From: an uncultured Gemmatimonadota bacterium
GTDB lineage: Bacteria > SM23-81 > DAOVCL01
DNA length: 23,221 nucleotides
Assembly: GCA_964626665.1 (NCBI GenBank)
Contig: CAZVGK010000040.1
Span: 1 to 23,221, forward strand
Direction: 5' to 3'
Shown here: positions 964 through 22,438 of the stretch, in pieces
Numbering within the stretch: the stretch's first letter is position 1
Layout of the letters: every line of letters starts with the position of its first letter
Made by a program: the position numbers and the translations under genes
The notes under the pieces: generated by a model
The model's input: the letters and a program-made list of their open reading frames with translations, nothing else
What the model was told of the DNA's origin: nothing
Databases searched by the model: none

Positions 964-2814
964 CTAAAATTTGCAACTGACGCTTGCAGTTATGCGGCGG
1001 TCGACTTTGTCTGCACCAACCCACCCAATTGGATTTGATTCATAGTGTATGTCGTTAAGTAGGTTAGAGGTAGCTACCCCAAACTCAAAATTATCCATAG
1101 GCACATAGGCAATCCGGGCATCAACAGTGGTATAAGAAGCGACTTTTTGCGGTGCAGGCAAAAGACCCAACGCCGGGTTAGCTGCATCTAACATCTCATA
1201 AAACTTATCCACATAATGAAAGGTTAAATTGGACGACCATTTGGCAAATTTAGTGTGTAAACCAATGTTGCACATGTTCTTGGGGTCTATCTCCAAGTTG
1301 CCAAAGTCACTGCGATGGATCCTCTGATAAGTATAGTTGACGAAACTTGTTAACCAGTTGGCACACAGAAAATCAAGGCCCAATTCCACTCCATGCTTAT
1401 GGCCATTAACTTCATTTCTCGGAGTGATACTTAAGTCGTTAGGAATTAGACCTCGGTAATCATTGTAGAAAATGGCGCTATTTAATTTAATCCGTTTGGC
1501 CGGGTGGCCGTAGTAAGCTAATTCATAGGAAATAATTCTTTCTTCATTCAAAGAAGGGTTAAATGTAAACGGGAAGATATTGCCCCAACCATAGAGCTGA
1601 GCAAGAGAAGGCAGATAATACCCATTGGCAATAGTTAGAGCAAGACGTTGTCTCTCAGCTGGTTTATAGATAATGCTGCCCCTTCCAAGACCAACAAAGT
1701 CCAGTTCAGAAAAATATTCTACCCTGCCTCCTAAGGTAAGGATAAGTTGATCCGTGGCATGATATTCATTTTCTGCCTTTATGGCATAGTCTTCGATATC
1801 GCTATCATGCCTGTCACCTACATTGTTTTTGACTGTAAAATCAACCATCTTCCCAAATCCGCCTATACTGGTTATGTTCTTGCCCCATTTGAAGATGCGC
1901 ATAACTTCAACCTCATGGTTTGCGTCATTCACACTAATCAGTTCTTCCACAGCGTTTTTAAACTGTTTATTATAGAAAAGACGCATCCAGAAGTTGGGTC
2001 GGTCATACCGCAGAGTAAAATAGGTGTTTTTTACATTCGTACAGTGGCGAGTGATTGCATCATCGCTATAACGATGTCGAATATCCGCGGAAATGGACGA
2101 TTCGTCACCAAGATGATAGACCACCCTGCCAGACACGTAGTTGGTTCGGCTATCTTCGTGCATAAAGAAGTCTCTGGGAGGAGACATATAGTCAGACTTG
2201 AGATGGCCGACGCCAATGCTATAGTCCCAGTTCTTATATCTTCCACCGTAGAGCACATCACCACGTACTGTATTCCAGTTACCGCCTACCAAATTCACTT
2301 GAGCTCCTTCTAATTGTTCGGGGGTTTTGGTGACGATATTGATTACCCCACTGAAAGCAGAACCGCCATAGAATACCCCACCGGGACCCTTAACAATCTC
2401 AATGCGTTCGATCTCCTCCAGAGCTACAGGTATTAAGTCAACATATGTGTGATTCACATGGTGCAGATATGCACTGCTACCATCGAGTGTAATCAGGACA
2501 TGTTGAGCATCAGCGAACCCACGAACGCCTATAGCATGGCTGCTTACAGAAGTTTCCCTTATCTGTATTCCGGTCACATTCCTTAACACATCAGCAATAC
2601 TTGTTGCCCCTGATTGTTTAATGTCCTCAGCAGTAATGATTTCTATGTTTGATGCCGCTTCAGTGATGGGTTGTAGCCTTTTGCTGGATGCAAACACTAC
2701 CGGAATCTCCATAAAAAGCAGTTCCTCATCTGCTTCCTGCTGAGCCAAAGCGTCAGAAGCAACTCCGACAACCAACATTGCAAAAATTGCTAAAACCAAA
2801 ATACCCTTCTTCAT
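964..2814 (-). CDS. TonB-dependent outer-membrane receptor (copy 1)
   Basis: 616 aa; signal peptide; plug motifs IITAEDIKQSGATSIADVLR and IERIEIVKGPGGVFYGGSAFSGVINIVTK; C-terminal Phe; GAGGAGG RBS. Confidence 0.92.
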   Translation of the reverse strand: MKKGILVLAIFAMLVVGVASDALAQQEADEELLFMEIPVVFASSKRLQPITEAASNIEIITAEDIKQSGATSIADVLRNVTGIQIRETSVSSHAIGVRGFADAQHVLITLDGSSAYLHHVNHTYVDLIPVALEEIERIEIVKGPGGVFYGGSAFSGVINIVTKTPEQLEGAQVNLVGGNWNTVRGDVLYGGRYKNWDYSIGVGHLKSDYMSPPRDFFMHEDSRTNYVSGRVVYHLGDESSISADIRHRYSDDAITRHCTNVKNTYFTLRYDRPNFWMRLFYNKQFKNAVEELISVNDANHEVEVMRIFKWGKNITSIGGFGKMVDFTVKNNVGDRHDSDIEDYAIKAENEYHATDQLILTLGGRVEYFSELDFVGLGRGSIIYKPAERQRLALTIANGYYLPSLAQLYGWGNIFPFTFNPSLNEERIISYELAYYGHPAKRIKLNSAIFYNDYRGLIPNDLSITPRNEVNGHKHGVELGLDFLCANWLTSFVNYTYQRIHRSDFGNLEIDPKNMCNIGLHTKFAKWSSNLTFHYVDKFYEMLDAANPALGLLPAPQKVASYTTVDARIAYVPMDNFEFGVATSNLLNDIHYESNPIGWVGADKVDRRITASVSCKF

Positions 2815-2846
2815 TTCCTCCTCTTTTTTGGGAATTATATCCCCGG

Positions 2847-2963
2847 TTAAAAATTACAGTTATTGACCCCTATTTCGTTAATGTTATAGTTCTTAGTGAT
2901 TATGAAGATCTGCACAAAGCTGACTAGATAATTCGCTAACAAATTTTCAATGCCCAAATTCAT
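2847..2963 (-). pseudogene. 38-codon remnant: duplicated first codons of the substrate-binding protein gene running into unrelated sequence
   Basis: ATGAATTTGGGCATTGAAA versus ATGAATTTGGGCGTTGAAA at 949, with the same 14-bp spacer after the receptor stop; reads MNLGIENLL...CNF*. Confidence 0.7.
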
Positions 2964-2977
2964 CTATATGAAATCTC

Positions 2978-4885
2978 CTAAAATTTGCAACTGACACCTA
3001 CGGTTATGCGGCGATCAATCAAATCTCCCGTATGCCAGTTACCTGGATTCGAATCTGGAGGATTTGATTCATAATGCCTGTTTTCAAGCAGATTGTAAGC
3101 GGCTACGGATAACTCGAGATTGTCTATGGGACTGTAGGCAATACGACCATTCAGAGTATAGTAAGACTCTACCTTTGACGGTTGAGCAGTACCAAGCGTG
3201 TCTTGTATACGACCGAATACCGGGTTGGATGTCAGGTATATCTCGTGATACTCATCCACATAATGGAAAGTAGCATTCGCTGACCATTTGGCAAGCTTGG
3301 CCCTTAAACCGAAATTGACTTTGTGTTCCGGGTCCACCGCCAGATCGCCAAAATCGTCTCGGTGAATTGCCTGGTAGGTATAGTTGACAAATCCTCTTAA
3401 TCGATCCGAAACAATGAAATGAAAATCTATTTCTCCACCCTTTTGATGGGCATTGGCCACATTCTTCATAGGACCTGCCTGGGTATTGTCAATCAAGTCC
3501 CGGTAATCGTTGTAAAAAATGGCGGTCTTTAACTGAACCTTCTCAGTTGGCTGGCCGTAATAACTCCATTCATAGGATGTAATCTTCTCTTCTCTCAAAG
3601 AGTAACTACCTAAAGCAAAGGGATAAGCAATACCTTCATTCGTATGCTGAAAGAGAGAGGGTATGTAATAGCCGGTGGCTATGGTAAAACGGAACCCCTG
3701 ATTCCATGTTGGCTTATAAATAACACTGCCCCGTCCAAGGCCGAGATAATCTAAATGCGTATGATACTCTCCTCGAGCCCCTAAGAAAAGTATGAATTGG
3801 TCATTAAAACGGCATTCATTTTCTATGTTTAACGCCCCGTCTTTTACATCGTGTTTTTCGAGGTTCCCGATTTCCGGTCCTCCAGGGAATGTTTCCTTAA
3901 GGGGTTCTACTTCCCAGGCAGTCTGTTTTACAAACCCACCCAGAGAGGTAACATTCTTTCCCCATCTGAAAGAACGAAAGATCTCCAACTCATAGTTAGC
4001 ATCCTTTACCGAATAGGTCTCGTCCCAAAAGGTTTTTTCGTGGTTATTATAGAAAAAACGCGCCCAGAATTCGGGTTGACCCCAACGTAAGGCAATAAAT
4101 GTCGTCTTGGGTTGACATACAGTAGAGATGACATTTTTAGCATCTGAATATCGAGCCATTAAGGATAATGATGATCTTTGGTCCAGGTTATAAATGGCTT
4201 TCCCACCAAAATAACCAACTGAAAACTTCTTTCCTTCTATACCCTTCAGTTGGGGGGCTTCCCACTCCTCGACCTGGTGATAACCGCCAGCAATGCTATA
4301 ATCTAAATTCTTATAGCTTCCGGCATGTATTAGGTTGCTACGGACTGTCTCCCAATTACCACCTACCACATTTAATTGCGTCCCCCTTAACTGCTGGGGA
4401 GTTTTGGTGATGATATTGATGACACCACTGAAGGCATTACCGCCATAGAAAATTGCCCCTGGCCCTTTGATGATCTCAATGTGGTCGACCTCCTCCAAAT
4501 CAACCGGCGCCCAATCAAGAAATATATGGTTCGCGTGATACATAAAGACATTATTCCCATCCAGGGTGACAAGAAGATGGCCGGTATCACAAAAGCCCCG
4601 AACTCCGATGACATGCTGACCGGCGTCTGATTCTCTGACATCTATTCCGGCAACCGATCTTAAAACATCACCGATATTGGTGGCTCCTGACTCCCTAATG
4701 TCCTCAGCAGTAATGATTTCTATGTTTGATGCCGCTTCAGTAATGGGTTGTAGCCTCTTGCTGGATGCAAACACTACCGGAATCTCCATAAACAGGAGTT
4801 CCTCTTCTTCCTGGGCCAGAGTATCAACACCACTTCCTACAACCAACAGCCCAAGAATTGCCAAAGCCAATATACCCTTCTTCAT
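2978..4885 (-). CDS. TonB-dependent outer-membrane receptor (copy 2), 635 aa
   Basis: Start reassigned to ATG 4885 (MKKGILAL..., GGAGGAGG RBS, matches paralog start); plug motif IEIIKGPGAIFYGGNAFSGVINIITK; ends VSCKF like copy 1. Confidence 0.92.
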   Translation of the reverse strand: MKKGILALAILGLLVVGSGVDTLAQEEEELLFMEIPVVFASSKRLQPITEAASNIEIITAEDIRESGATNIGDVLRSVAGIDVRESDAGQHVIGVRGFCDTGHLLVTLDGNNVFMYHANHIFLDWAPVDLEEVDHIEIIKGPGAIFYGGNAFSGVINIITKTPQQLRGTQLNVVGGNWETVRSNLIHAGSYKNLDYSIAGGYHQVEEWEAPQLKGIEGKKFSVGYFGGKAIYNLDQRSSLSLMARYSDAKNVISTVCQPKTTFIALRWGQPEFWARFFYNNHEKTFWDETYSVKDANYELEIFRSFRWGKNVTSLGGFVKQTAWEVEPLKETFPGGPEIGNLEKHDVKDGALNIENECRFNDQFILFLGARGEYHTHLDYLGLGRGSVIYKPTWNQGFRFTIATGYYIPSLFQHTNEGIAYPFALGSYSLREEKITSYEWSYYGQPTEKVQLKTAIFYNDYRDLIDNTQAGPMKNVANAHQKGGEIDFHFIVSDRLRGFVNYTYQAIHRDDFGDLAVDPEHKVNFGLRAKLAKWSANATFHYVDEYHEIYLTSNPVFGRIQDTLGTAQPSKVESYYTLNGRIAYSPIDNLELSVAAYNLLENRHYESNPPDSNPGNWHTGDLIDRRITVGVSCKF

Positions 4886-5581: not shown

Positions 5582-5754
5582 TAACCTGAATTATTCATGC
5601 CACAAATACACCAAGCCCCAAAGTGTTGATAGAATAGGGATTAAAACAAAAGGTTAGAGGCTAATGGAGAGCGACTCAATTTACAAACCGAAGTGCTCTA
5701 ATGTCTTATATTCTTAGTGTCTTCGTGGCAAAGGTTTGTGAATAATCCGGGCTA
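5582..5754. mobile_element. Non-coding MITE-like element with nested inverted repeats
   Basis: Outer IR TAACCTGAATTATTCAT / GTGAATAATCCGGGCTA (13/17); inner IR TGCCACAAATACACCAAG / CTTAGTGTCTTCGTGGCA (15/18). Confidence 0.55.
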
Positions 5755-5803
5755 AAGGCCTCAAACTTCTGAGATCCCTCCAAAATCACTTAAATGTTAA
5801 ACG

Positions 5804-14086: not shown

Positions 14087-14597
14087 TTTGAGCCCCGTAT
14101 ATCTTTTCCATTCTCTTTAGGGAGAAGCTATGAAACTGGGGATCGATGTCTGCCACCCCATCCCGATAGACCTTCACCTGGTAATCCCTGTTTCTTAACC
14201 CCCCCACAGTGTCCATCACACAGATGGAGGTGCAGACGCCTACAACCTCCACCTTGGTGAGCCCATTTCTTTTAAGGATGCCAGCGAGATCTGTCCCATA
14301 GAACCCGCTATACCTCGTCTTCCTGACCACCAGGTCTTTCTCCCCAACTGGCAGCTCATCTATAAGCTCTGCACCTTCCGTTCCCTCTACACAGTGAGGG
14401 GGAAAGAGCTCGAACTCCTTGTCGTCCTTCCGGTGAAGGTCACAGAGGAAGATGACCAGCTCATTGTTTTTATGGAAATCCTCTATCTTTCGACGCACGA
14501 AAGGGATAATTCCCCTGACCTTATCCCCACAGTAGAGCTTCCCTGTAGGGTAGAGGAAATCCTTGAGCATATCGATCACAAGCAATGCTTTACTCAT
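14079..14597 (-). CDS. pncA: Nicotinamidase / isochorismatase-family cysteine hydrolase
   Basis: Triad motifs VIDM, KTRYSGF, GVCTSICV; metal ligands in DLH and PPHC; operon with pncB. Confidence 0.85.
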   Translation of the reverse strand: MSKALLVIDMLKDFLYPTGKLYCGDKVRGIIPFVRRKIEDFHKNNELVIFLCDLHRKDDKEFELFPPHCVEGTEGAELIDELPVGEKDLVVRKTRYSGFYGTDLAGILKRNGLTKVEVVGVCTSICVMDTVGGLRNRDYQVKVYRDGVADIDPQFHSFSLKRMEKIYGAQIG

Positions 14598-14604
14598 TGT
14601 CCTT

Positions 14605-14633
14605 AAATTATCTCAAAGCCCTTCAGATGTCAA
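14605..14633 (-). promoter_or_regulatory. sigma-70-type promoter for pncA-pncB
   Basis: TTGACA-N17-TAATTT, with the -10 ending 7 nt before the ATG. Confidence 0.55.
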
Positions 14634-14848
14634 GGGAAAATCCTCAGTTGGCCCATTCACCATTGGATCTCAAGCAATGGATCATTATACAATGGTCAAT
14701 TAACAATTAGCAAGTTAAAATGAAATGAAGCCAGAAAATCTGGAGATGTAAGCCATTTTTCATTGATAATTGTTCATCAATCATTGACCATCTCTTTGTC
14801 AGTCCGTGGTTATCAGTGGTGGACTATTACCCTAATTTAAACTTTTTG

Positions 14849-14877
14849 TTGACACCCTTGGTTAAAAACCTTATATT
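14849..14877 (+). promoter_or_regulatory. sigma-70-type promoter for the tRNA-Ser pair
   Basis: TTGACA-N17-TATATT, 10 nt before the tRNA. Confidence 0.75.
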
Positions 14878-14887
14878 TACCTTGGTT

Positions 14888-14972
14888 GGAGGGTTAGCCT
14901 AACTGGTAAGGCAGCGGACTTGAAATCCGCCGTCCTTTAACGGACTTGGGGGTTCGAGTCCCTCACCCTCCG
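14888..14972 (+). tRNA. tRNA-Ser(TGA), CCA not encoded
   Basis: Acceptor GGAGGGT/ACCCTCC, G73, anticodon arm GCGGA-CTTGAAA-TCCGC, long variable arm, GGTTCGAGTCC. Confidence 0.95.
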
Positions 14973-14984
14973 CTATAGCGAATC

Positions 14985-15082
<98 letters not shown>

Positions 15083-15101
15083 AAGAGGAAGTTGAGGCAT
15101 A

Positions 15102-15818
15102 TTGAGTAAAATGGCTGACAAGGATGGAATTTATAAGAATGCTTCTCTTGTCGAGGTGGTTTTTGAGATAAGATTTCCGGGAGAGCCAGCCATTGAATGT
15201 AATAGGGACAAATTTTATGAGAGGATAAGGGATGTTTACTCGAAAGTTTGGGCTCCTAAATCATTTGAAGGTAAAGCGAAGGCTTTAGAACCATACAAAT
15301 TCGAACGTGAAGATGGCACTAATGGAGTTATGTTGTCTATCGATAAGGTTGCAGTATATTGCAAAAAGTACATGGGCTTTAAACCATTTAAAAAAGAGAC
15401 GATGAGGGTATTCTCCATTTTTGGAGAATTGTTTAAGGTACAAAAACTTAACAGAGTAGGACTGCGGTATATAAATATCATACCTTTTACCAGGGAAAAA
15501 GATGTTATCCCCATAAAAAATTATTTAAATATTAAGATAGAGTTACCGAAGTCCATACCAACTGATTTTAAAAATCTAAACATAATATTTGTATCTCAAA
15601 CCAAAGGTGGCAGTATAACAACGCACATTGAACCAGCTATTTCTCCCGATAAAATCCAAGAAGTCATCATTTTGGATTTTGATTATGCTAAAGAGAAGAA
15701 TTTGATTTTCGGTTTAATAGATAAATATCTTGATGAAAGTCACCAACATACAAAATATTTATTCGAGGAGCTAATAACCGACAGGTATAAAAAAGTAATG
15801 CGTGGGGAGATGATATAA
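15102..15818 (+). CDS. TIGR04255-like protein of unknown function
   Basis: YKNASLVEVVFEIRF, RVGLRYINII, IILDFD signature; AT-rich; start may be ATG 15111. Confidence 0.8.
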   Translation: MSKMADKDGIYKNASLVEVVFEIRFPGEPAIECNRDKFYERIRDVYSKVWAPKSFEGKAKALEPYKFEREDGTNGVMLSIDKVAVYCKKYMGFKPFKKETMRVFSIFGELFKVQKLNRVGLRYINIIPFTREKDVIPIKNYLNIKIELPKSIPTDFKNLNIIFVSQTKGGSITTHIEPAISPDKIQEVIILDFDYAKEKNLIFGLIDKYLDESHQHTKYLFEELITDRYKKVMRGEMI

Positions 15819-16246
15819 TGAGTCCTTCATTGGTTGAAAGCACTTATAATATAATAAAAGAAAGAACGGCGTATGTACCAGAAAATTATATAGACTCCAG
15901 AGTTAGAGGGGTGGGGACGGCTTCTACTATTGCTCCACAACAAATTTTCAGCCATATTAAGAAATATCAACCAAGTCCTATATGGAGAATCTATGCAGAA
16001 GCCAAGAAGTTTTATACTGCTAAACCGGTAGCAGTAAGAATTTATCGTGATGAGGATTTATTTTTTGCTGAGAATGAAAACCTTGCTGTTTGCGGCACCG
16101 GAGATACTTCTAAAGGTGCCCTTCAGGATTTATGTTTGCATATTATACATTTTTATGAGTACTACAGGGAAATTGATAAGAGCAAACTTACTGGCGATGC
16201 TTTGAGATTGAAAGATCTCTACGAGAATTTGCTTGTTGAGGAATAG
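15818..16246 (+). CDS. HicB-like antitoxin domain with a ~65-aa N-terminal extension and no DNA-binding domain
   Basis: VRIYRDEDLFFAENENLAVCGTGDTSKGALQDL resembles the HicB N-domain pattern; TAATG overlap with the upstream gene. Confidence 0.6.
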   Translation: MSPSLVESTYNIIKERTAYVPENYIDSRVRGVGTASTIAPQQIFSHIKKYQPSPIWRIYAEAKKFYTAKPVAVRIYRDEDLFFAENENLAVCGTGDTSKGALQDLCLHIIHFYEYYREIDKSKLTGDALRLKDLYENLLVEE

Positions 16247-16247
16247 C

Positions 16248-16538
16248 ATGCAGGTTGAAAGAAGAACAATAGAGTCTAATCTTCCCTCCAAAGGTTTTGT
16301 AGTCCAAGAGACACATCATAGGTATTTTTATCACGAATATCAAGGGTTGAGGACCGGTCCCTATACCTATACATCGCGTGGAAGCAGGTATAAAACTTAT
16401 AGTAAACCACTCTTTAAAAGAATGAGGAAAGAGTTGAGATTAGATACAATTAGGCAGGTTATTGATTTGTTTGAGTGTCCAATTAGCGGTGAGGACTATA
16501 ATAGTATCTTAAAGGGTAAGGGATTGATTAAATCTTAG
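16248..16538 (+). CDS. HicA-like (dsRBD-fold) toxin, 96 aa
   Basis: Basic protein with helix-KGF-x5-HH-xYF pattern and LFKRMRKELRL helix; ATG 16248 lies 1 nt after the upstream stop, with GAGGA RBS. Confidence 0.6.
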   Translation: MQVERRTIESNLPSKGFVVQETHHRYFYHEYQGLRTGPYTYTSRGSRYKTYSKPLFKRMRKELRLDTIRQVIDLFECPISGEDYNSILKGKGLIKS

Positions 16539-16570
16539 AAAAGGGGCAGCCAAATCTAACTTCAGGAGAA

Positions 16571-16948
16571 ATGGGACTAACATTTCTGAAAATTGAGGTA
16601 GGGAATCCTGCCCAACCGGAGATTAGAGTAGAGGTGAAACTTCTGGTAGACTCTGGTGCTATCTACTCCGTGGTGCCAAGAGGGATCTTAGATAAACTGG
16701 GGATCAAACCTCTTGCCGAGGAGAAGTTTAAATTGGCGAATGGAGAGACGATAACCCGCAAAAAAGGGGGGGCGCTCTTTAAATATGGGGAGAGGATAGG
16801 TGTAGCAGATGTAATCTTTGGCGCACCCGGAGACAGCAACCTTTTGGGGGCATTCACTTTGGAGGCCTTGGGGTTGGCACTTGATCCCCTGAAACGGGAA
16901 CTCAAGCTTCTCCCTATGGTCATCGCCCCAGTTAATTCCAAACCATAA
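16571..16948 (+). CDS. Clan AA (retropepsin-like) aspartic protease
   Basis: LLVDSGAIYS catalytic motif, LANG flap, LLGAFTLEALG; CAGGAG RBS. Confidence 0.88.
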   Translation: MGLTFLKIEVGNPAQPEIRVEVKLLVDSGAIYSVVPRGILDKLGIKPLAEEKFKLANGETITRKKGGALFKYGERIGVADVIFGAPGDSNLLGAFTLEALGLALDPLKRELKLLPMVIAPVNSKP

Positions 16949-16960
16949 GCTCAGGAGGGT

Positions 16961-17329
16961 ATGGTGAATTTCGAATTGAAAAGAGTTGATGTTTGGTCGG
17001 TGGTGAAGATAGTCTTTTTTCTGGATGCTGTCATCGGGCTTTTGGTTGGTTTCTTCTATACTTTTGTCTTTAGTCTAATAGGTGGTTTTCTGAGTGGGGA
17101 GAGAGCCCTCCCGATGATGGGTTTCTTCTCAGGTGTTGTTGGTTTTTTTATGTCCTTTGTGTTAGCCATTTTTTATGCCGTTTTGGGAGCTGTCTTCACA
17201 GCCATCTTGGCTGGCCTTTACAACCTTTTAGCGGGGTGGCTGGGCGGGTTCAAGCTCTCCTTAGCTGAGGAGATACGTCCTGAAGCTTCCCCTCCCCCAG
17301 AGCTGCCAAGCCGAGAGGAACCCGCTTAA
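16961..17329 (+). CDS. Membrane protein, DUF3566-like
   Basis: LKRVDVWSVVK start, two hydrophobic helices, LYNLLAGWLGG. Confidence 0.72.
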   Translation: MVNFELKRVDVWSVVKIVFFLDAVIGLLVGFFYTFVFSLIGGFLSGERALPMMGFFSGVVGFFMSFVLAIFYAVLGAVFTAILAGLYNLLAGWLGGFKLSLAEEIRPEASPPPELPSREEPA

Positions 17330-17331
17330 CT

Positions 17332-18768
17332 ATGGGGGAGGTTAGGGTTCGTATTGCTCCCTCTCCCACCGGGTTTCTGCATATAGGGACGGTTCGCACA
17401 GCCCTTTACAACTGGCTTTTTGCGCGCAACAGGGGGGGGAAATTTATCCTGCGGATTGAGGATACGGACTTAGAGAGATCTGGCCCCGAGATGGTTGAGG
17501 TGATCATTGACAGCTTAAAATGGTTGGGATTGGACTGGGATGAAGGCCCCTATTTTCAATCCCAGAGGATGGGGGTTTACCAGGGATACGCCCAAAGGCT
17601 TTTGGCCTCAGGGAATGCCTACTATTGTTACTGCACGGAGCAGGAGCTACGGGAGAGGAGGGAACAGGCCATTAGGGAAAAGAGGGATAGCAAATATGAT
17701 CGTCGTTGCCTGAAACTTACCCCTGAGGAGAGGCAAAATCTGGGTAGGATGGGTAAGCCCAAGGCCCTGCGTTTCTTAGTGCCAGAGGGGAAGACGGTGG
17801 TTGAGGATTTGGTCTGTGGCCGGGTGGAGAAGGATAACTCAGAAATTGAGGACCTCATCATCGTGCGCTCAGATGGCCGCCCCACCTATAATTTAGCCTG
17901 TGTGGTGGACGACTTGGAGATGGGGATCACCCATGTGATCAGGGGTAATGACCATCTTTCCAATACCTTCAAACAGATTTTGATGTATAGGGCCTTAGGG
18001 GTTCCTTTCCCTTGGTTCGCTCACCTTCCCCTGGGCTTGGGCGAGGACCGCAGCAAGATATCCAAAAGGTATGGGGCGGTCTCTGTCACTGAATACAGAA
18101 AGATGGGTTTCCTTCCCAAGGCTCTGATCAACTATTTGGCCCTTTTGGGATGGTCCCCCGGCGATGATCGGGAGATAATGAGCCATGAGGAGCTGGTAAA
18201 GGCCTTCAGCCTGGCCAGGGTTAGACCCACAAATCCGATCTTTGACCTGCAAAAGTTAGAGTGGATGAACAGCCAGTACATAAAGGGGTTGGAGGAAGAG
18301 GATCTGCTCAGGCTCGTCCTTCCCTTTCTCCAGGAGAAGGGATGGTTCCGGGGGGAACTTGCGGGGGAGAAGAGGGAATGGTTGATGAGAGTTCTTCTGC
18401 TCCTTAGGGAGAGGGCCCATAGGCTCACCGACTTTGTGGACTTGGGGAACTACTTCTTCTCCTCTGAAATAGAGTATGATCCGCAGGCGGTTGAGGAGCA
18501 TCTTCGCAGCCCGGGAATAAAGAGGAAGATAGTCTTGTTGGGGGAGAGGCTTGCCGAGCTGCAGGATTTTTCTGCAGAAAATATCGAAGTTGCCTTAAGA
18601 ACCCTGGCCAAAGAGCTGGGGGTGAAGGCGGCAGAGCTTATTCATCCTCTCCGGGTTGCCGCAACGGGAAGAAAAGGTGGGCCCAGCCTCTTTCACCTGC
18701 TGGAACTTTTGGGGAAGGAGAAGGTTTTAAAAAGGTTAGAGAATGCCCTCAGCTTACTAGCTAAATAG
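17332..18768 (+). CDS. gltX: Glutamate--tRNA ligase
   Basis: RIAPSPTGFLHIG, LRIEDTD, CYC...YDRRC, ITHVIRGNDH, KISKR, C-terminal anticodon-binding domain. Confidence 0.97.
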   Translation: MGEVRVRIAPSPTGFLHIGTVRTALYNWLFARNRGGKFILRIEDTDLERSGPEMVEVIIDSLKWLGLDWDEGPYFQSQRMGVYQGYAQRLLASGNAYYCYCTEQELRERREQAIREKRDSKYDRRCLKLTPEERQNLGRMGKPKALRFLVPEGKTVVEDLVCGRVEKDNSEIEDLIIVRSDGRPTYNLACVVDDLEMGITHVIRGNDHLSNTFKQILMYRALGVPFPWFAHLPLGLGEDRSKISKRYGAVSVTEYRKMGFLPKALINYLALLGWSPGDDREIMSHEELVKAFSLARVRPTNPIFDLQKLEWMNSQYIKGLEEEDLLRLVLPFLQEKGWFRGELAGEKREWLMRVLLLLRERAHRLTDFVDLGNYFFSSEIEYDPQAVEEHLRSPGIKRKIVLLGERLAELQDFSAENIEVALRTLAKELGVKAAELIHPLRVAATGRKGGPSLFHLLELLGKEKVLKRLENALSLLAK

Positions 18769-18771
18769 AAT

Positions 18772-18845
18772 TGGGGAGTCGTCTAATGGCAGGACACGAG
18801 ACTCTGGATCTCGGTGTCGGGGTTCGAATCCCTGCTCCCCAGCCA
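18772..18845 (+). tRNA. tRNA-Gln(CTG)
   Basis: Acceptor TGGGGAG/CTCCCCA, CGAGA-CTCTGGA-TCTCG, GCCA end. Confidence 0.96.
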
Positions 18846-18847
18846 GA

Positions 18848-19000
18848 ATCTGAAATTATGCGAGTAAACACCGAATGACACCGAAACTACCGAAATATAA
18901 ATGATTTATAAAAATTGGCATTTCATTTTTTAGGTAAAATCCTCTCTTCGGGTCTCTTTTTACTTCAGTGATTTTCGGTGTTTAATGCATAATCCGGGAT
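18848..19000. mobile_element. Non-coding MITE-like element with nested inverted repeats filling the tRNA-Gln/tRNA-Glu spacer
   Basis: Outer IR ATCTGAAATTATGC / GCATAATCCGGGAT (10/14); inner IR TAAACACCGAATGACACCGAA / TTCAGTGATTTTCGGTGTTTA (17/21); same layout as 5582-5754. Confidence 0.5.
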
Positions 19001-19005
19001 AAATT

Positions 19006-19078
19006 GGCGCCATCGTCTAGAGGTCTAGGATACGTGGTTCTCAGCCATGTGACCGGGGTTCGATTCCCCGTGGCGCTA
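19006..19078 (+). tRNA. tRNA-Glu(CTC), CCA not encoded
   Basis: Acceptor GGCGCCA/TGGCGCT, CGTGG-TTCTCAG-CCATG, GGTTCGATTCC. Confidence 0.95.
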
Positions 19079-19119
19079 TTTTTCTCCTTTGAGGTTTTTC
19101 TAATGGGGTTAGGTAAAGG

Positions 19120-21523: not shown

Positions 21524-21597
21524 GCGCCCGTAGCCCAATTGGATAGAGCGCCTGACTACGGATCAGGAGGGTGGGGGTTCGACTCCCTTCGGGCGCG
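21524..21597 (+). tRNA. tRNA-Arg(ACG), CCA not encoded
   Basis: Acceptor GCGCCCG/CGGGCGC, CCTGA-CTACGGA-TCAGG, GGTTCGACTCC. Confidence 0.96.
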
Positions 21598-21604
21598 CTA
21601 AGAG

Positions 21605-22075
21605 ATGGATCAAACCGTTAGGTGGATGAGGGCAGCCCTCCAGGAGGCCCAGAGGGCCTATGAGGAGGGTGAAGTTCCTGTCGGTGCTGTAATTGTGTAT
21701 GGGGAGCGGATAATTGGAAGGGGCCACAATCAGGTGGAAGAGCTGCAGGATCCCACCGCTCATGCCGAGGTCCTGGCCATTGGAGCAGCAGCAGGTTTCC
21801 TCCATTCCTGGAGGTTGGAAGGGGCTACAATCTATGTAACCATTGAACCCTGTCCTATGTGTGTGGGGGCTATTCTCCTTTCCAGATTGGATAGGTTGGT
21901 CTTTGGCGCCCCGGACCCCAGATTTGGCGCCTGCGGCTCGGTGATGAATATAACGGAAAGCTATTATCCTCTCAACCAGAAACCCGTTGTGGTCGGTGGT
22001 GTCCTCCAGGATGAATGTTCCCTGCTTCTTAGTTCATTCTTTCGGAAATTGAGAAAAGCTACCAAGTCAACTTAG
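21605..22075 (+). CDS. tadA: tRNA adenosine(34) deaminase
   Basis: GEVPVGAV, DPTAHAE, EPCPMC, FGACGS, FFRKLR. Confidence 0.95.
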   Translation: MDQTVRWMRAALQEAQRAYEEGEVPVGAVIVYGERIIGRGHNQVEELQDPTAHAEVLAIGAAAGFLHSWRLEGATIYVTIEPCPMCVGAILLSRLDRLVFGAPDPRFGACGSVMNITESYYPLNQKPVVVGGVLQDECSLLLSSFFRKLRKATKST

Positions 22076-22241
22076 CCTCTCGGAAATTCTACAAGTTCCG
22101 AGACGGCCATCAGGGGGTTTGGGGGAAAGGATGTGCTTTCCCCCAAGGGGTAACAGGATTTCGGTGTGAGCTGGCGGAGCACCGAAATCCGCCAGAGGGG
22201 CAATAGCCCCTTGGAAGTTAGCGACCGAAGGAAGCTAACTT
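22075..22241 (+). repeat. Five-hairpin structured element, copy B (fills the tadA/tRNA-Ser spacer)
   Basis: Stems TCTCGGAA/TTCCGAGA, TTGGGGGAAAG/CTTTCCCCCAA, GGATTTCGGTG/CACCGAAATCC, GGGGC/GCCCC, AAGTTAGC/GCTAACTT. Confidence 0.7.
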
Positions 22242-22242
22242 A

Positions 22243-22332
22243 GGAGAGGTGCCGGAGTTTGGCTTAACGGGGCGGTCTCGAAAACCGTTGTCCCTTAGGG
22301 GACCGGGGGTTCAAATCCCTCCCTCTCCGCCA
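22243..22332 (+). tRNA. tRNA-Ser(CGA)
   Basis: Acceptor GGAGAGG/CCTCTCC, GCGGT-CTCGAAA-ACCGT, variable arm GTCCC-TTAG-GGGAC, GCCA end. Confidence 0.96.
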
Positions 22333-22345
22333 GAAAAGGCCTCGC

Positions 22346-22438
22346 GGAGAGATGACCGAGTTGGCCGAAGGTGCACGACTGGAAATCGTGTTCTCGATGT
22401 GAGTCGGGACGAGGGTTCGAATCCCTCTCTCTCCGCCA
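22346..22438 (+). tRNA. tRNA-Ser(GGA)
   Basis: Acceptor GGAGAGA/TCTCTCC, CACGA-CTGGAAA-TCGTG, long variable arm, GCCA end. Confidence 0.96.

Follow-up and report, generated by a model that had tools for sequence, protein, structure and literature searches.

What is the role of three small AT-rich genes that lie directly behind a pair of serine tRNA genes in an uncultured Gemmatimonadota bacterium, and do they work as one system? The window analysed here is the whole of contig CAZVGK010000040.1 (assembly GCA_964626665.1; positions 1-23,221), and the cassette, whose genes we call g1, g2 and g3, occupies positions 15102-16538 (Table 1). Judging from the sequence comparisons set out below, the locus is probably a tripartite toxin-antitoxin (TA) module with an adaptor antitoxin.

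Table 1. The g1-g2-g3 cassette and the features that border it in the window.
Feature	Position	Strand	Description
Promoter-like site, TTGACA-17-TATATT	14849..14877	+	11/12 consensus; upstream of both tRNA-Ser genes
tRNA-Ser(tga)	14888-14973	+	ARAGORN; just upstream of tRNA-Ser(gct)
tRNA-Ser(gct)	14985-15076	+	ARAGORN; the tRNA pair (14888..15076) is the left border of the cassette
g1	15102..15818	+	TIGR04255; 238 aa from TTG; 235 aa if counted from the in-frame ATG at 15111
g2	15818..16246	+	142 aa; N-terminal arm and acidic HicB-like core
g2 residues 1-65, N-terminal arm	15818..16012	+	Basic, pI 9.6; candidate TIGR04255-linked module
g2 residues 66-142 and stop codon, core	16013..16246	+	Acidic, pI 4.8; candidate toxin-neutralising domain
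g3	16248..16538	+	96 aa from ATG, basic; alternative 101-aa TTG form at 16233 less likely

A sequence-only reading of this DNA had described the genes as AT-rich, tightly coupled, beginning 25 nt past tRNA-Ser(gct) and without an integrase nearby, and this description held in each respect. The tRNA ends at 15076 and the TTG start of g1 lies at 15102; the G+C counts were reproduced (15/60 at 15481-15540 and 30/60 at 17641-17700), and G+C amounts to 0.355 in the cassette versus 0.523 in gltX. As read in the sequence, TAATG joins g1 to g2 and TAG-C-ATG joins g2 to g3. A Pfam scan of 10 large ORFs of the window found housekeeping, receptor or sensor genes and no integrase; no integration scar was seen either, in that direct repeats of the tRNA 3' end do not exceed 12 nt. 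The tRNA-cassette junction recurs in L004 and L005, two related MAG records that have the cassette at this site with 84-85% nucleotide identity. The promoter-like site is the sole strong plus-strand match upstream, a match to consensus only, with 7 sites versus 6.0 expected in shuffles, and no terminator-like site was found on the plus strand in 14550-17000; it is possible that this candidate promoter drives a single tRNA-tRNA-g1-g2-g3 transcript.

The three genes do form a conserved unit, as had been proposed: at 28 of the 36 loci that hold a g2 relative, which come from more than 12 phyla, g1, g2 and g3 stand in the same order. The first gene is present at 29 of the 36, and at every one of these 29 the g1 stop and the g2 start overlap or adjoin each other, and the g2 ORF is at least 136 aa long. 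At all seven loci without g1, g2 is either 71-110 aa long or broken, and the arm is absent or truncated; across the 36 loci there is neither a g1 without an arm nor a whole arm without g1. This distribution, with the module swap at L074/L077 described below, supports the view that the arm and TIGR04255 share their gains, losses and swaps, although their joint loss can partly reflect DNA adjacency, because one deletion takes out both.

The predicted toxin of the unit is g3. It had been characterised as a basic HicA-like protein, and the analysis bears this out, with a pI of 9.8, the KGF...THH motif and the HicA fold in its model, which is alpha-beta-beta-beta-alpha, resembling a dsRBD, with C-terminal helices at 67-75 and 80-89. 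All six of the best structural matches of the model are HicA toxins. The Pfam model HicA_toxin (PF07927) gives no match to g3 at E up to 1, and we therefore speak of a HicA-fold or HicA-like protein, not of a member of PF07927; a six-frame genome scan with the Pfam HicA model found nine other sites, none of them in the window. In HicA toxins, the conserved histidine of the first strand is catalytic. His24 of g3 (H23 where Met1 is uncounted) does not vary in 29 of 29 sequences, nor in 4 of 4 wider relatives, and aligns with the histidine of the HicA GSH motif, but in an hhalign match of 14.6%. From the fold and the invariant His24 we infer RNase activity, and we propose that g3 is an RNase toxin with His24 as its candidate catalytic residue.

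The middle protein, g2, combines two dissimilar parts. Its core had been called HicB-like, and profile comparison with hhalign agrees, at 68% (E 4.6e-5, 61 columns) with six HicBs of its own genome and at 63% with a 38-sequence HicB set, the cross-controls lying at 0.1-1.5%. A Protein Atlas feature search with the core returned HicB, PHD_like and DUF1902 clusters at 0.80-0.85, which, being below 0.9, are leads only. The core thus appears to resemble the HicB antitoxin domain and is named HicB-like here; g2 gives no match to the Pfam model HicB_lk_antitox (PF15919) at E up to 1, and a genome scan with the Pfam HicB model found 11 other sites, none in the window. Pfam detects no DNA-binding domain in g2, and the arm is as rich in Ser, Thr, Tyr and Pro as the sequence-only reading had said (21 of 65 residues, or 32%, versus 17% in the core) and is conserved over its full length in 34 aligned homologues. 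Longer, fused versions of g2 were sought and not found, and viral contigs searched with the g2 alignment held no relative. For g2 and g3 together, Pfam, NCBIfam, PADLOC and PHROGs returned nothing usable; we count this result, like the lack of viral relatives, against the tripartite reading.

How does the g2-g3 part of the cassette relate to known hicBA loci? The antitoxin-then-toxin order had been presented as the reverse of typical hicAB, yet it is no anomaly: according to Gerdes (2024; PMC10865869), hicBA without a DNA-binding domain is the commonest bicistronic form, and the canonical pairs of the same genome, on C36 and C17, run hicB then hicA. Section 5 of that paper describes 14 hicBA classes, none of which, as given there, has a three-gene form. 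Class 8 as described in it resembles our locus in having a HicA of about 95 aa (96 aa for g3) with a dsRBD fold and two small C-terminal helices, and a HicB-fold domain encoded directly upstream without a DNA-binding domain; it differs in that its antitoxin is a single three-domain protein of 331-356 aa, whereas here a 142-aa g2 is accompanied by a separate 235-aa TIGR04255 protein. Class 2, in the same text, shares the antitoxin-then-toxin order, the overlapping genes, the small HicB core and the lack of a DNA-binding domain, but g2 bears the arm in addition and comes with an obligatory partner upstream, and g2 and g3 fall outside the Pfam HicB and HicA models. Locus L023, whose two-gene derivative has the look of Class 2, encodes a g2 reduced to its core (74 aa), and this gene overlaps an intact g3. 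A plasmid pair from Geminocystis (356 aa and 95 aa) fits the Class 8 description and is found by the g3 profile at 75.8 bits; the 356-aa protein, encoded beside the g3 relative, matches the g2 core at its C-terminus (E 2e-8). We also considered whether Class 8 HicB is a TIGR04255-HicB fusion and rejected this, since residues 1-265 of the Geminocystis protein have no NCBIfam match at E up to 10 and an hhalign value of 0.1% to TIGR04255.

The first gene belongs to TIGR04255, a named family of no assigned function. The NCBIfam model, which is the sole NCBIfam match, covers g1 over positions 2-248 of 252 at 107 bits versus a cut-off of 30, and scores it at 106.1 bits in a whole-genome scan; 675 representative relatives were found. 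At E up to 1, Pfam assigns g1 to no family, and a literature search on the terms 'TIGR04255' and 'DUF7689' found no paper naming either. A SecB-like identity for TIGR04255, as had been entertained, finds no backing in sequence, where no SecB model of Pfam or NCBIfam matches. Comparison of folds, from an AF2 model with a pLDDT of 96.6, yielded no clear functional analogue; SecB is absent from the fold lists, an absence that does not exclude it, while Foldseek returned TATA-binding proteins at probability 0.9-0.99 and the Protein Atlas returned look-alikes without names only. Searched against the PDB as single sequences and as profiles, g1, g2 and g3 gave chance-level rows only, and the predicted g1-g2 complex, with a score of 0.52 and one control as high as 0.42, speaks neither for nor against binding. 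Among 62 TIGR04255 proteins compared, the conserved positions are mostly aromatic and structural residues, together with RxxLRY. We consider it unlikely that g1 is an enzyme or a sensor that binds nucleotides, with the arm or the toxin as the target of modification or with its beta-sheet face reading a small-molecule signal.

We then examined TIGR04255 in two phyla other than that of the window, where it was detected in 43/401 and 35/285 sampled genomes. The sequence-only reading had staked its case on a recurrent linkage of this family to TA-like pairs, and the 61 loci surveyed display just such a linkage. TIGR04255 is always the first gene of these cassettes; the second gene starts at most 12 nt after it in each of the 59 readable cases; the third starts at most 15 nt further downstream in 53 of 58. 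By sequence, the third genes make up 14 clusters, among which matches of the cluster representatives identify PIN, HEPN, PemK/MazF, HicA-like and DUF7689 proteins, and 6 of 58 are g3-like. PADLOC, run on 10 proteins from other cassette types, with four cassette types tried overall, gave no model match. Long frames of 388, 380 and 361 aa were considered as TIGR04255 fusions and rejected as upstream read-through.

These cassettes are inherited in modules, with a boundary inside the middle protein. At loci L074 and L077, where the toxins are unrelated, the TIGR04255 proteins are 85% identical. Similarity between the two middle proteins (55% identity) is confined to residues 1-76, an N-terminal module analogous to the g2 arm, and each C-terminus matches that of a locus sharing its toxin (L109 or L096). 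The swap pattern implies that the inheritance of the arm is tied to TIGR04255 and that of the C-terminus to the toxin. In addition, toxin type follows the TIGR04255 tree, with 14 changes versus 40.6 in shuffles (quick tree). Inspection by eye of middle-protein N-termini across 24 clusters revealed no convincing common motif and, since conservation in TIGR04255 is itself mostly of aromatic and structural residues, the mode of binding, if any, is not evident.

Could g1 instead be the transcriptional regulator of the operon, its beta-sheet lying on DNA and the arm recruiting an antitoxin that has no DNA-binding domain of its own? Such regulators are known from other TA loci, as with omega in omega-epsilon-zeta and PaaR in paaR-paaA-parE. 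The constant first position of g1, its resemblance to TATA-binding proteins, its pI of 9.0 and the lack of a Pfam DNA-binding domain in g2 and in 10 of 10 other middle proteins tested would all suit this idea, to which we nevertheless give a rather low probability. That the functional unit is the hicBA-like g2-g3 pair only, with g1 a hitch-hiking neighbour or an independent defence or immunity gene, is compatible with the two-gene form at L023 and with the plasmid pair, whose fused 356-aa antitoxin comes without TIGR04255, but is made very improbable by the stop/start overlap at 29/29 loci, the family-wide coupling at 59/59, the co-occurrence of arm and g1, the module boundary at L074/L077 and the agreement of toxin type with the TIGR04255 tree.

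Read as a tripartite module with an adaptor antitoxin, the locus invites comparison with known systems of this kind. In TAC systems, as presented by Bordes et al. (2016; PMC5105189), HigBA, MqsRA or HicAB is combined with a SecB-like chaperone. Like them, the cassette has three genes and, by prediction, an extra antitoxin segment tied to a dedicated third protein, segment and partner making up a transferable module on different TA families, HicAB included. Unlike them, it has TIGR04255 and, by sequence, no SecB as the third protein, which is encoded first where that of TAC is encoded last, and the g2 extension is N-terminal and of about 65 aa where TAC has a short C-terminal ChAD. CmdTAC, as described by Vassallo et al. 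(2024; PMC11618068), is likewise a tripartite TA system, whose third protein senses infection and on its release destabilises the antitoxin, freeing an RNA-acting toxin; our sensor reading of g1 is modelled on it. All three proteins are, however, unrelated to those of CmdTAC, which has an ADP-ribosyltransferase toxin and a different chaperone and is an anti-phage system. The hyperpromiscuous antitoxin domain Panacea (PanA; PMC8832971), as outlined in the NetFlax paper (PMC10440598), also shows one conserved domain family with many unrelated toxin partners and extra neutralising segments. There, the Panacea domain lies inside the antitoxin polypeptide, whereas TIGR04255 stands apart as a protein of its own, and neutralisation is predicted to fall to the variable middle protein.

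Taken as a tripartite module, the cassette would work as follows. The HicA-fold toxin g3 would be neutralised through direct binding by the C-terminal HicB-like core of g2, as HicA is by HicB, while the 65-residue N-terminal arm would tie this adaptor antitoxin to g1. An alpha+beta platform protein, g1 would hold the arm and thereby set the stability or activity of the antitoxin; if g1 were lost, titrated or displaced, as a phage or stress signal might bring about, the toxin would be freed. More tentatively, TIGR04255 and its matching arm may be a portable sensing module placed on at least a dozen different TA pairs. TIGR04255 would here serve as a platform for pattern recognition; a phage protein or another signal of an invader would occupy it, upon which the arm would come free and, with the antitoxin gone, the toxin would fire, possibly in defence against phage.

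For the family, TIGR04255 thus gains a concrete candidate role as the common first gene of three-gene TA-like cassettes, and a domain boundary between arm and neutralising domain is predicted within the middle protein. Should the third protein act as a sensor or as an addiction partner, the logic of TAC and CmdTAC would have been invented a second time, independently and with a much wider toxin repertoire, and several effector families of no known function would gain candidate toxin roles. If the portable-sensor reading is true, tripartite abortive-infection systems of this kind would make up a large and as yet undescribed family, carried by about 1/9 of the genomes in the two sampled phyla, with effectors that span HicA-like, PIN, HEPN, MazF and DUF7689 proteins and several of no known family.

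The islet of three AT-rich genes that the sequence-only reading had placed beside a tRNA-Ser gene is real, its reading frames, junctions, spacing and base composition all being reproduced, the two 60-nt G+C counts (cassette and gltX) exactly. Over its whole length the cassette has 35.5% G+C, against 52.3% in gltX. Upstream of g1, tRNA-Ser(tga) is followed by tRNA-Ser(gct), the pair ending at 15076, and both the 25-nt spacing from there to g1 and the coupled junctions can be read in the sequence as claimed: TAATG is common to the g1 stop and g2 start, and TAG-C-ATG joins the g2 stop to the g3 start. On either side the cassette has housekeeping genes: glnS, genes for a phosphoribosyltransferase and an isochorismatase, gltX and tRNAs. 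As the earlier reading had it, no integrase was found in the window; nor was any repeat of the tRNA end found around the cassette. A strong promoter-like site lies upstream of the tRNA pair, and since no terminator-like site was found on the plus strand from there to the end of g3, the cassette is possibly co-transcribed with the two tRNA-Ser genes. The same tRNA-gltX site holds the cassette in two related MAG records (84-85% identity; flanks 78-81%), which points to stable inheritance in this lineage.

Coordinates of the three cassette genes in the window
Gene	Position	Strand	Remark
g1	15102..15818	+	TTG start; in-frame ATG at 15111
g2	15818..16246	+	ORF
g3	16248..16538	+	ORF

An 8-kb part of the window contains seven tRNA genes (14888-15076, 18772-19079 and 21524-22438), four of them tRNA-Ser in two pairs; gltX, glnS and a gene for a tadA-like deaminase stand among them, an unusually translation-centred setting for an AT-rich insert. 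A 125-aa clan AA (retropepsin-like) aspartic protease ORF with host-like G+C (0.49) begins 33 nt past g3 (16571-16948); one of the related MAG records, L004, lacks it there and has instead about 175 nt with a 73% match to window intergenic positions 5582-5755, possibly a small repeated element.

The first protein belongs to TIGR04255 (107 bits, cut-off 30); among 50%-identity representatives it has 675 relatives, 185 of them at E <=1e-10 and 64 at E <=1e-30. Its AF2 model (102 sequences, pLDDT 96.6) consists of two similar beta-alpha halves that form a large antiparallel sheet with long helices behind. Foldseek listed AdoMetDC and TATA-binding proteins (TM 0.27-0.42) with no match standing out, so that the predicted fold points to no function. 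A fair match of the model to an unnamed 202-aa viral protein (BFVD A0A515MGR4; E 7.5e-7, TM 0.54/0.61) and a weak one of g1 to phrog_5464, a phage protein family without assigned function (E 3.8e-6), suggest that viruses may also carry TIGR04255-like proteins.

Neither g2 nor g3 reached any model in Pfam, NCBIfam or PADLOC, and they are not among the 11 and 9 sites in this genome matched by the Pfam HicB and HicA models. Profile comparison supports the HicB-like core proposed for g2, residues ~72 to 135 scoring 68% and 63% against HicB alignments, with cross-controls at 0.1-1.5%. The g3 model is alpha-beta-beta-beta-alpha plus two helices (pLDDT 91.4), and its comparison with HicAs of its own genome is weak (14.6%) and in register, setting the invariant His24 on the GSH-motif His.

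To follow the unit, one genome per species was scanned for g2 relatives, yielding 36 loci that were then examined by HMM scans and ORF reading. By record title, the hosts are Zixibacteria, Clostridia, Sumerlaeota, Omnitrophota, Thermodesulfobacteriota, Actinomycetota, Planctomycetota, Aerophobetes, Atribacterota, Spirochaetota, Ignavibacteria, Acidobacteria, Nitrospirae and Elusimicrobia. All three genes occur in 28/36 loci and g1 in 29. In each of these 29, the g2 start is placed 0, -3 or +1 nt relative to the end of g1, and in all but L015 the g2 product has 136-147 aa. L011 has no g3; g3 is split over two frames in L014, while g1 is split in L017 and truncated by the contig end in L006. In the seven loci lacking g1, g2 is 71-110 aa or broken; in L023 a core of 74 aa remains, its frame overlapping that of an intact g3. 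Three of them, L019, L031 and L036, from different phyla, join a few g1-like N-terminal residues straight to the core (g2 start ~3920-4000) and appear to be deletion derivatives that lost most of g1 together with the arm, which suggests recurrent deletions that spare both the core and the start signals upstream. Neither g1 without the arm nor the whole arm without g1 was found in any of the 36 loci. In L015 (4380-4440), an A-run frameshift near the g2 end turns g2 and g3 into a single frame of 240 aa, and L031 (3971-4303), on another contig of the same Scalindua MAG, is a broken copy joined in the same manner; the frameshift may be genuine or an artefact of sequencing through a homopolymer.

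The first gene has a wider distribution. The TIGR04255 model matched 43/401 and 35/285 sampled genomes of two phyla and 0/14 control genomes. We read 61 loci, the higher-scoring part of the matches (up to 30 loci per search: 29 and 28 from the two phylum surveys, plus L001, L062, L063 and L066; L119 was omitted for an internal stop). The neighbourhood survey proposed earlier revealed recurrent, tight linkage: the second gene starts -14 to +12 nt from the TIGR04255 stop in 59/59 loci (the other two end at a contig edge) and the third within 15 nt of the second in 53/58, figures biased to small gaps because the script takes the start codon closest to the preceding stop. Counter to that bias, 46/59 second and 56/58 third genes have same-position homologues in other loci.

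Two further TIGR04255 sites lie in the window's genome. On contig C17 (31836-33660; L001, locus 1471-3295), a complete cassette comprises a 262-aa TIGR04255 gene, an overlapping 204-aa gene and a coupled 140-aa gene, the latter two products matching no Pfam family; a canonical hicB-hicA pair (C17: 35083-35480) lies ~1.4 kb beyond. On contig C25 (L003, locus 1450-2826), the cassette is decayed, with TIGR04255 reduced to its C-terminal 106 aa, a middle gene of 100 aa similar to the one in L073, and 75 aa left of an SQSCD-type third gene, with SQSGD at the motif; it adjoins a PIN-domain gene. Annotated TIGR04255 genes on plasmids also sit in conflict-gene neighbourhoods: in Thermus brockianus (L158), the gene has a vapBC pair and a DNA methylase on one side and CRISPR cas6 on the other, and in Rhizobium (L159) its neighbours are a multiubiquitin/ThiF/DUF6527 set and an IS110 transposase.

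The 58 third genes fall into 14 BLAST clusters, named from Pfam matches of representatives only: HEPN (9 loci; L082 28.8 bits, L098 38.1), PIN (6; L080 36.7), DUF7689 (5; L069 147.5), MazF (2; L096 PemK 58.1), a g3-like cluster (6), an unknown one with an NHAN motif (6), an unknown one with an SQSCD/TQDCD motif (11) and smaller ones for the remaining loci. The commonest family, of 144-196 aa with a conserved S/T-Q-S/D-C-D motif (L063, L073, L095, L104, L106-L108, L111, L112, L115 and L117), has partners from 10 different middle-gene clusters and matched nothing in Pfam or PADLOC. Middle genes form 24 clusters, and none of 10 tested proteins contained a Pfam family. A quick tree built from 57 TIGR04255 proteins groups those linked to HicA in a single clade (support 98), and toxin type requires 14 changes on it (minimum 11, shuffled mean 40.6).

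Pairwise identities locate a boundary within the middle protein. L074 and L077 share TIGR04255 at 85% over full length and the middle protein at 55% over residues 1-76 only, their third proteins (a 218-aa unknown and MazF, respectively) being unrelated. L074 and L109 are 58% identical in TIGR04255, 34% in the full-length middle protein and 64% in the third; for L077 and L096 the values are 60%, 38% (residues 28-119) and 46% (both MazF). The N-terminal part is thus inherited with TIGR04255 and the C-terminal part with the toxin. The same modular logic fits the window cassette: in its relatives L113, L114, L116 and L122, the g2 core and a g3-like toxin (89-95 bits) persist, the arms being longer and dissimilar and TIGR04255 having diverged.

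In the simplest reading, the g2 core would neutralise the HicA-fold toxin g3, the arm would make g2 dependent on, or controlled by, g1, and g1 would be the conserved control element. Joint deletion of g1 and arm, never of one alone, is what addiction would predict; the two adjoin on the DNA, however, which favours joint loss anyway, so the pattern is suggestive only. That g1 is an enzyme or nucleotide-binding sensor seems unlikely; against an enzyme, conservation among 62 TIGR04255 proteins is confined to Tyr87 (62/62), Arg115 (50), Arg119 (54) and Tyr120 (58), and mainly hydrophobic residues. A DNA-binding transcriptional regulator of the operon also seems unlikely, the median pI of TIGR04255 proteins being 5.6. 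Control of g2 through its arm would parallel the chaperone addiction of toxin-antitoxin-chaperone systems, in which a SecB-like chaperone, together with a short extension on the antitoxin, makes up a transferable pair occurring with HigA, MqsA and HicB (PMC5105189). It would likewise parallel the chaperone logic of CmdTAC, whose chaperone senses a phage capsid protein (PMC11618068).

Among the 14 classes of HicA context in section 5 of Gerdes 2024 (PMC10865869), none has the three-gene form. As described there, Class 8 HicA matches g3 in shape (~95 aa with two extra helices), whereas its HicB is one 331-356-aa protein where the window has separate g1 and g2. A pair on Geminocystis plasmid NZ_AP014827.1, in which an ORF of 356 aa that spans the record origin overlaps a 95-aa gene, fits the Class 8 description and shows homology with g3 at 75.8 bits and with the g2 core at E 2e-8; TIGR04255 was not detected in the N-terminal 265 residues of the larger protein. 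No paper on this family was found when the literature was searched under the names TIGR04255 and DUF7689 and, from 2022 on, for tripartite toxin-antitoxin systems.

Comparison thus supports well the earlier proposal that the cassette functions as a toxin-antitoxin system; TIGR04255 as the probable partner of the arm draws its support from inheritance patterns only. Within the HicA/HicB type, the window cassette represents a novel three-component form; it also belongs, as one branch, to a far larger and apparently undescribed group of cassettes led by TIGR04255, which, we conjecture, may act in sensing and phage defence.
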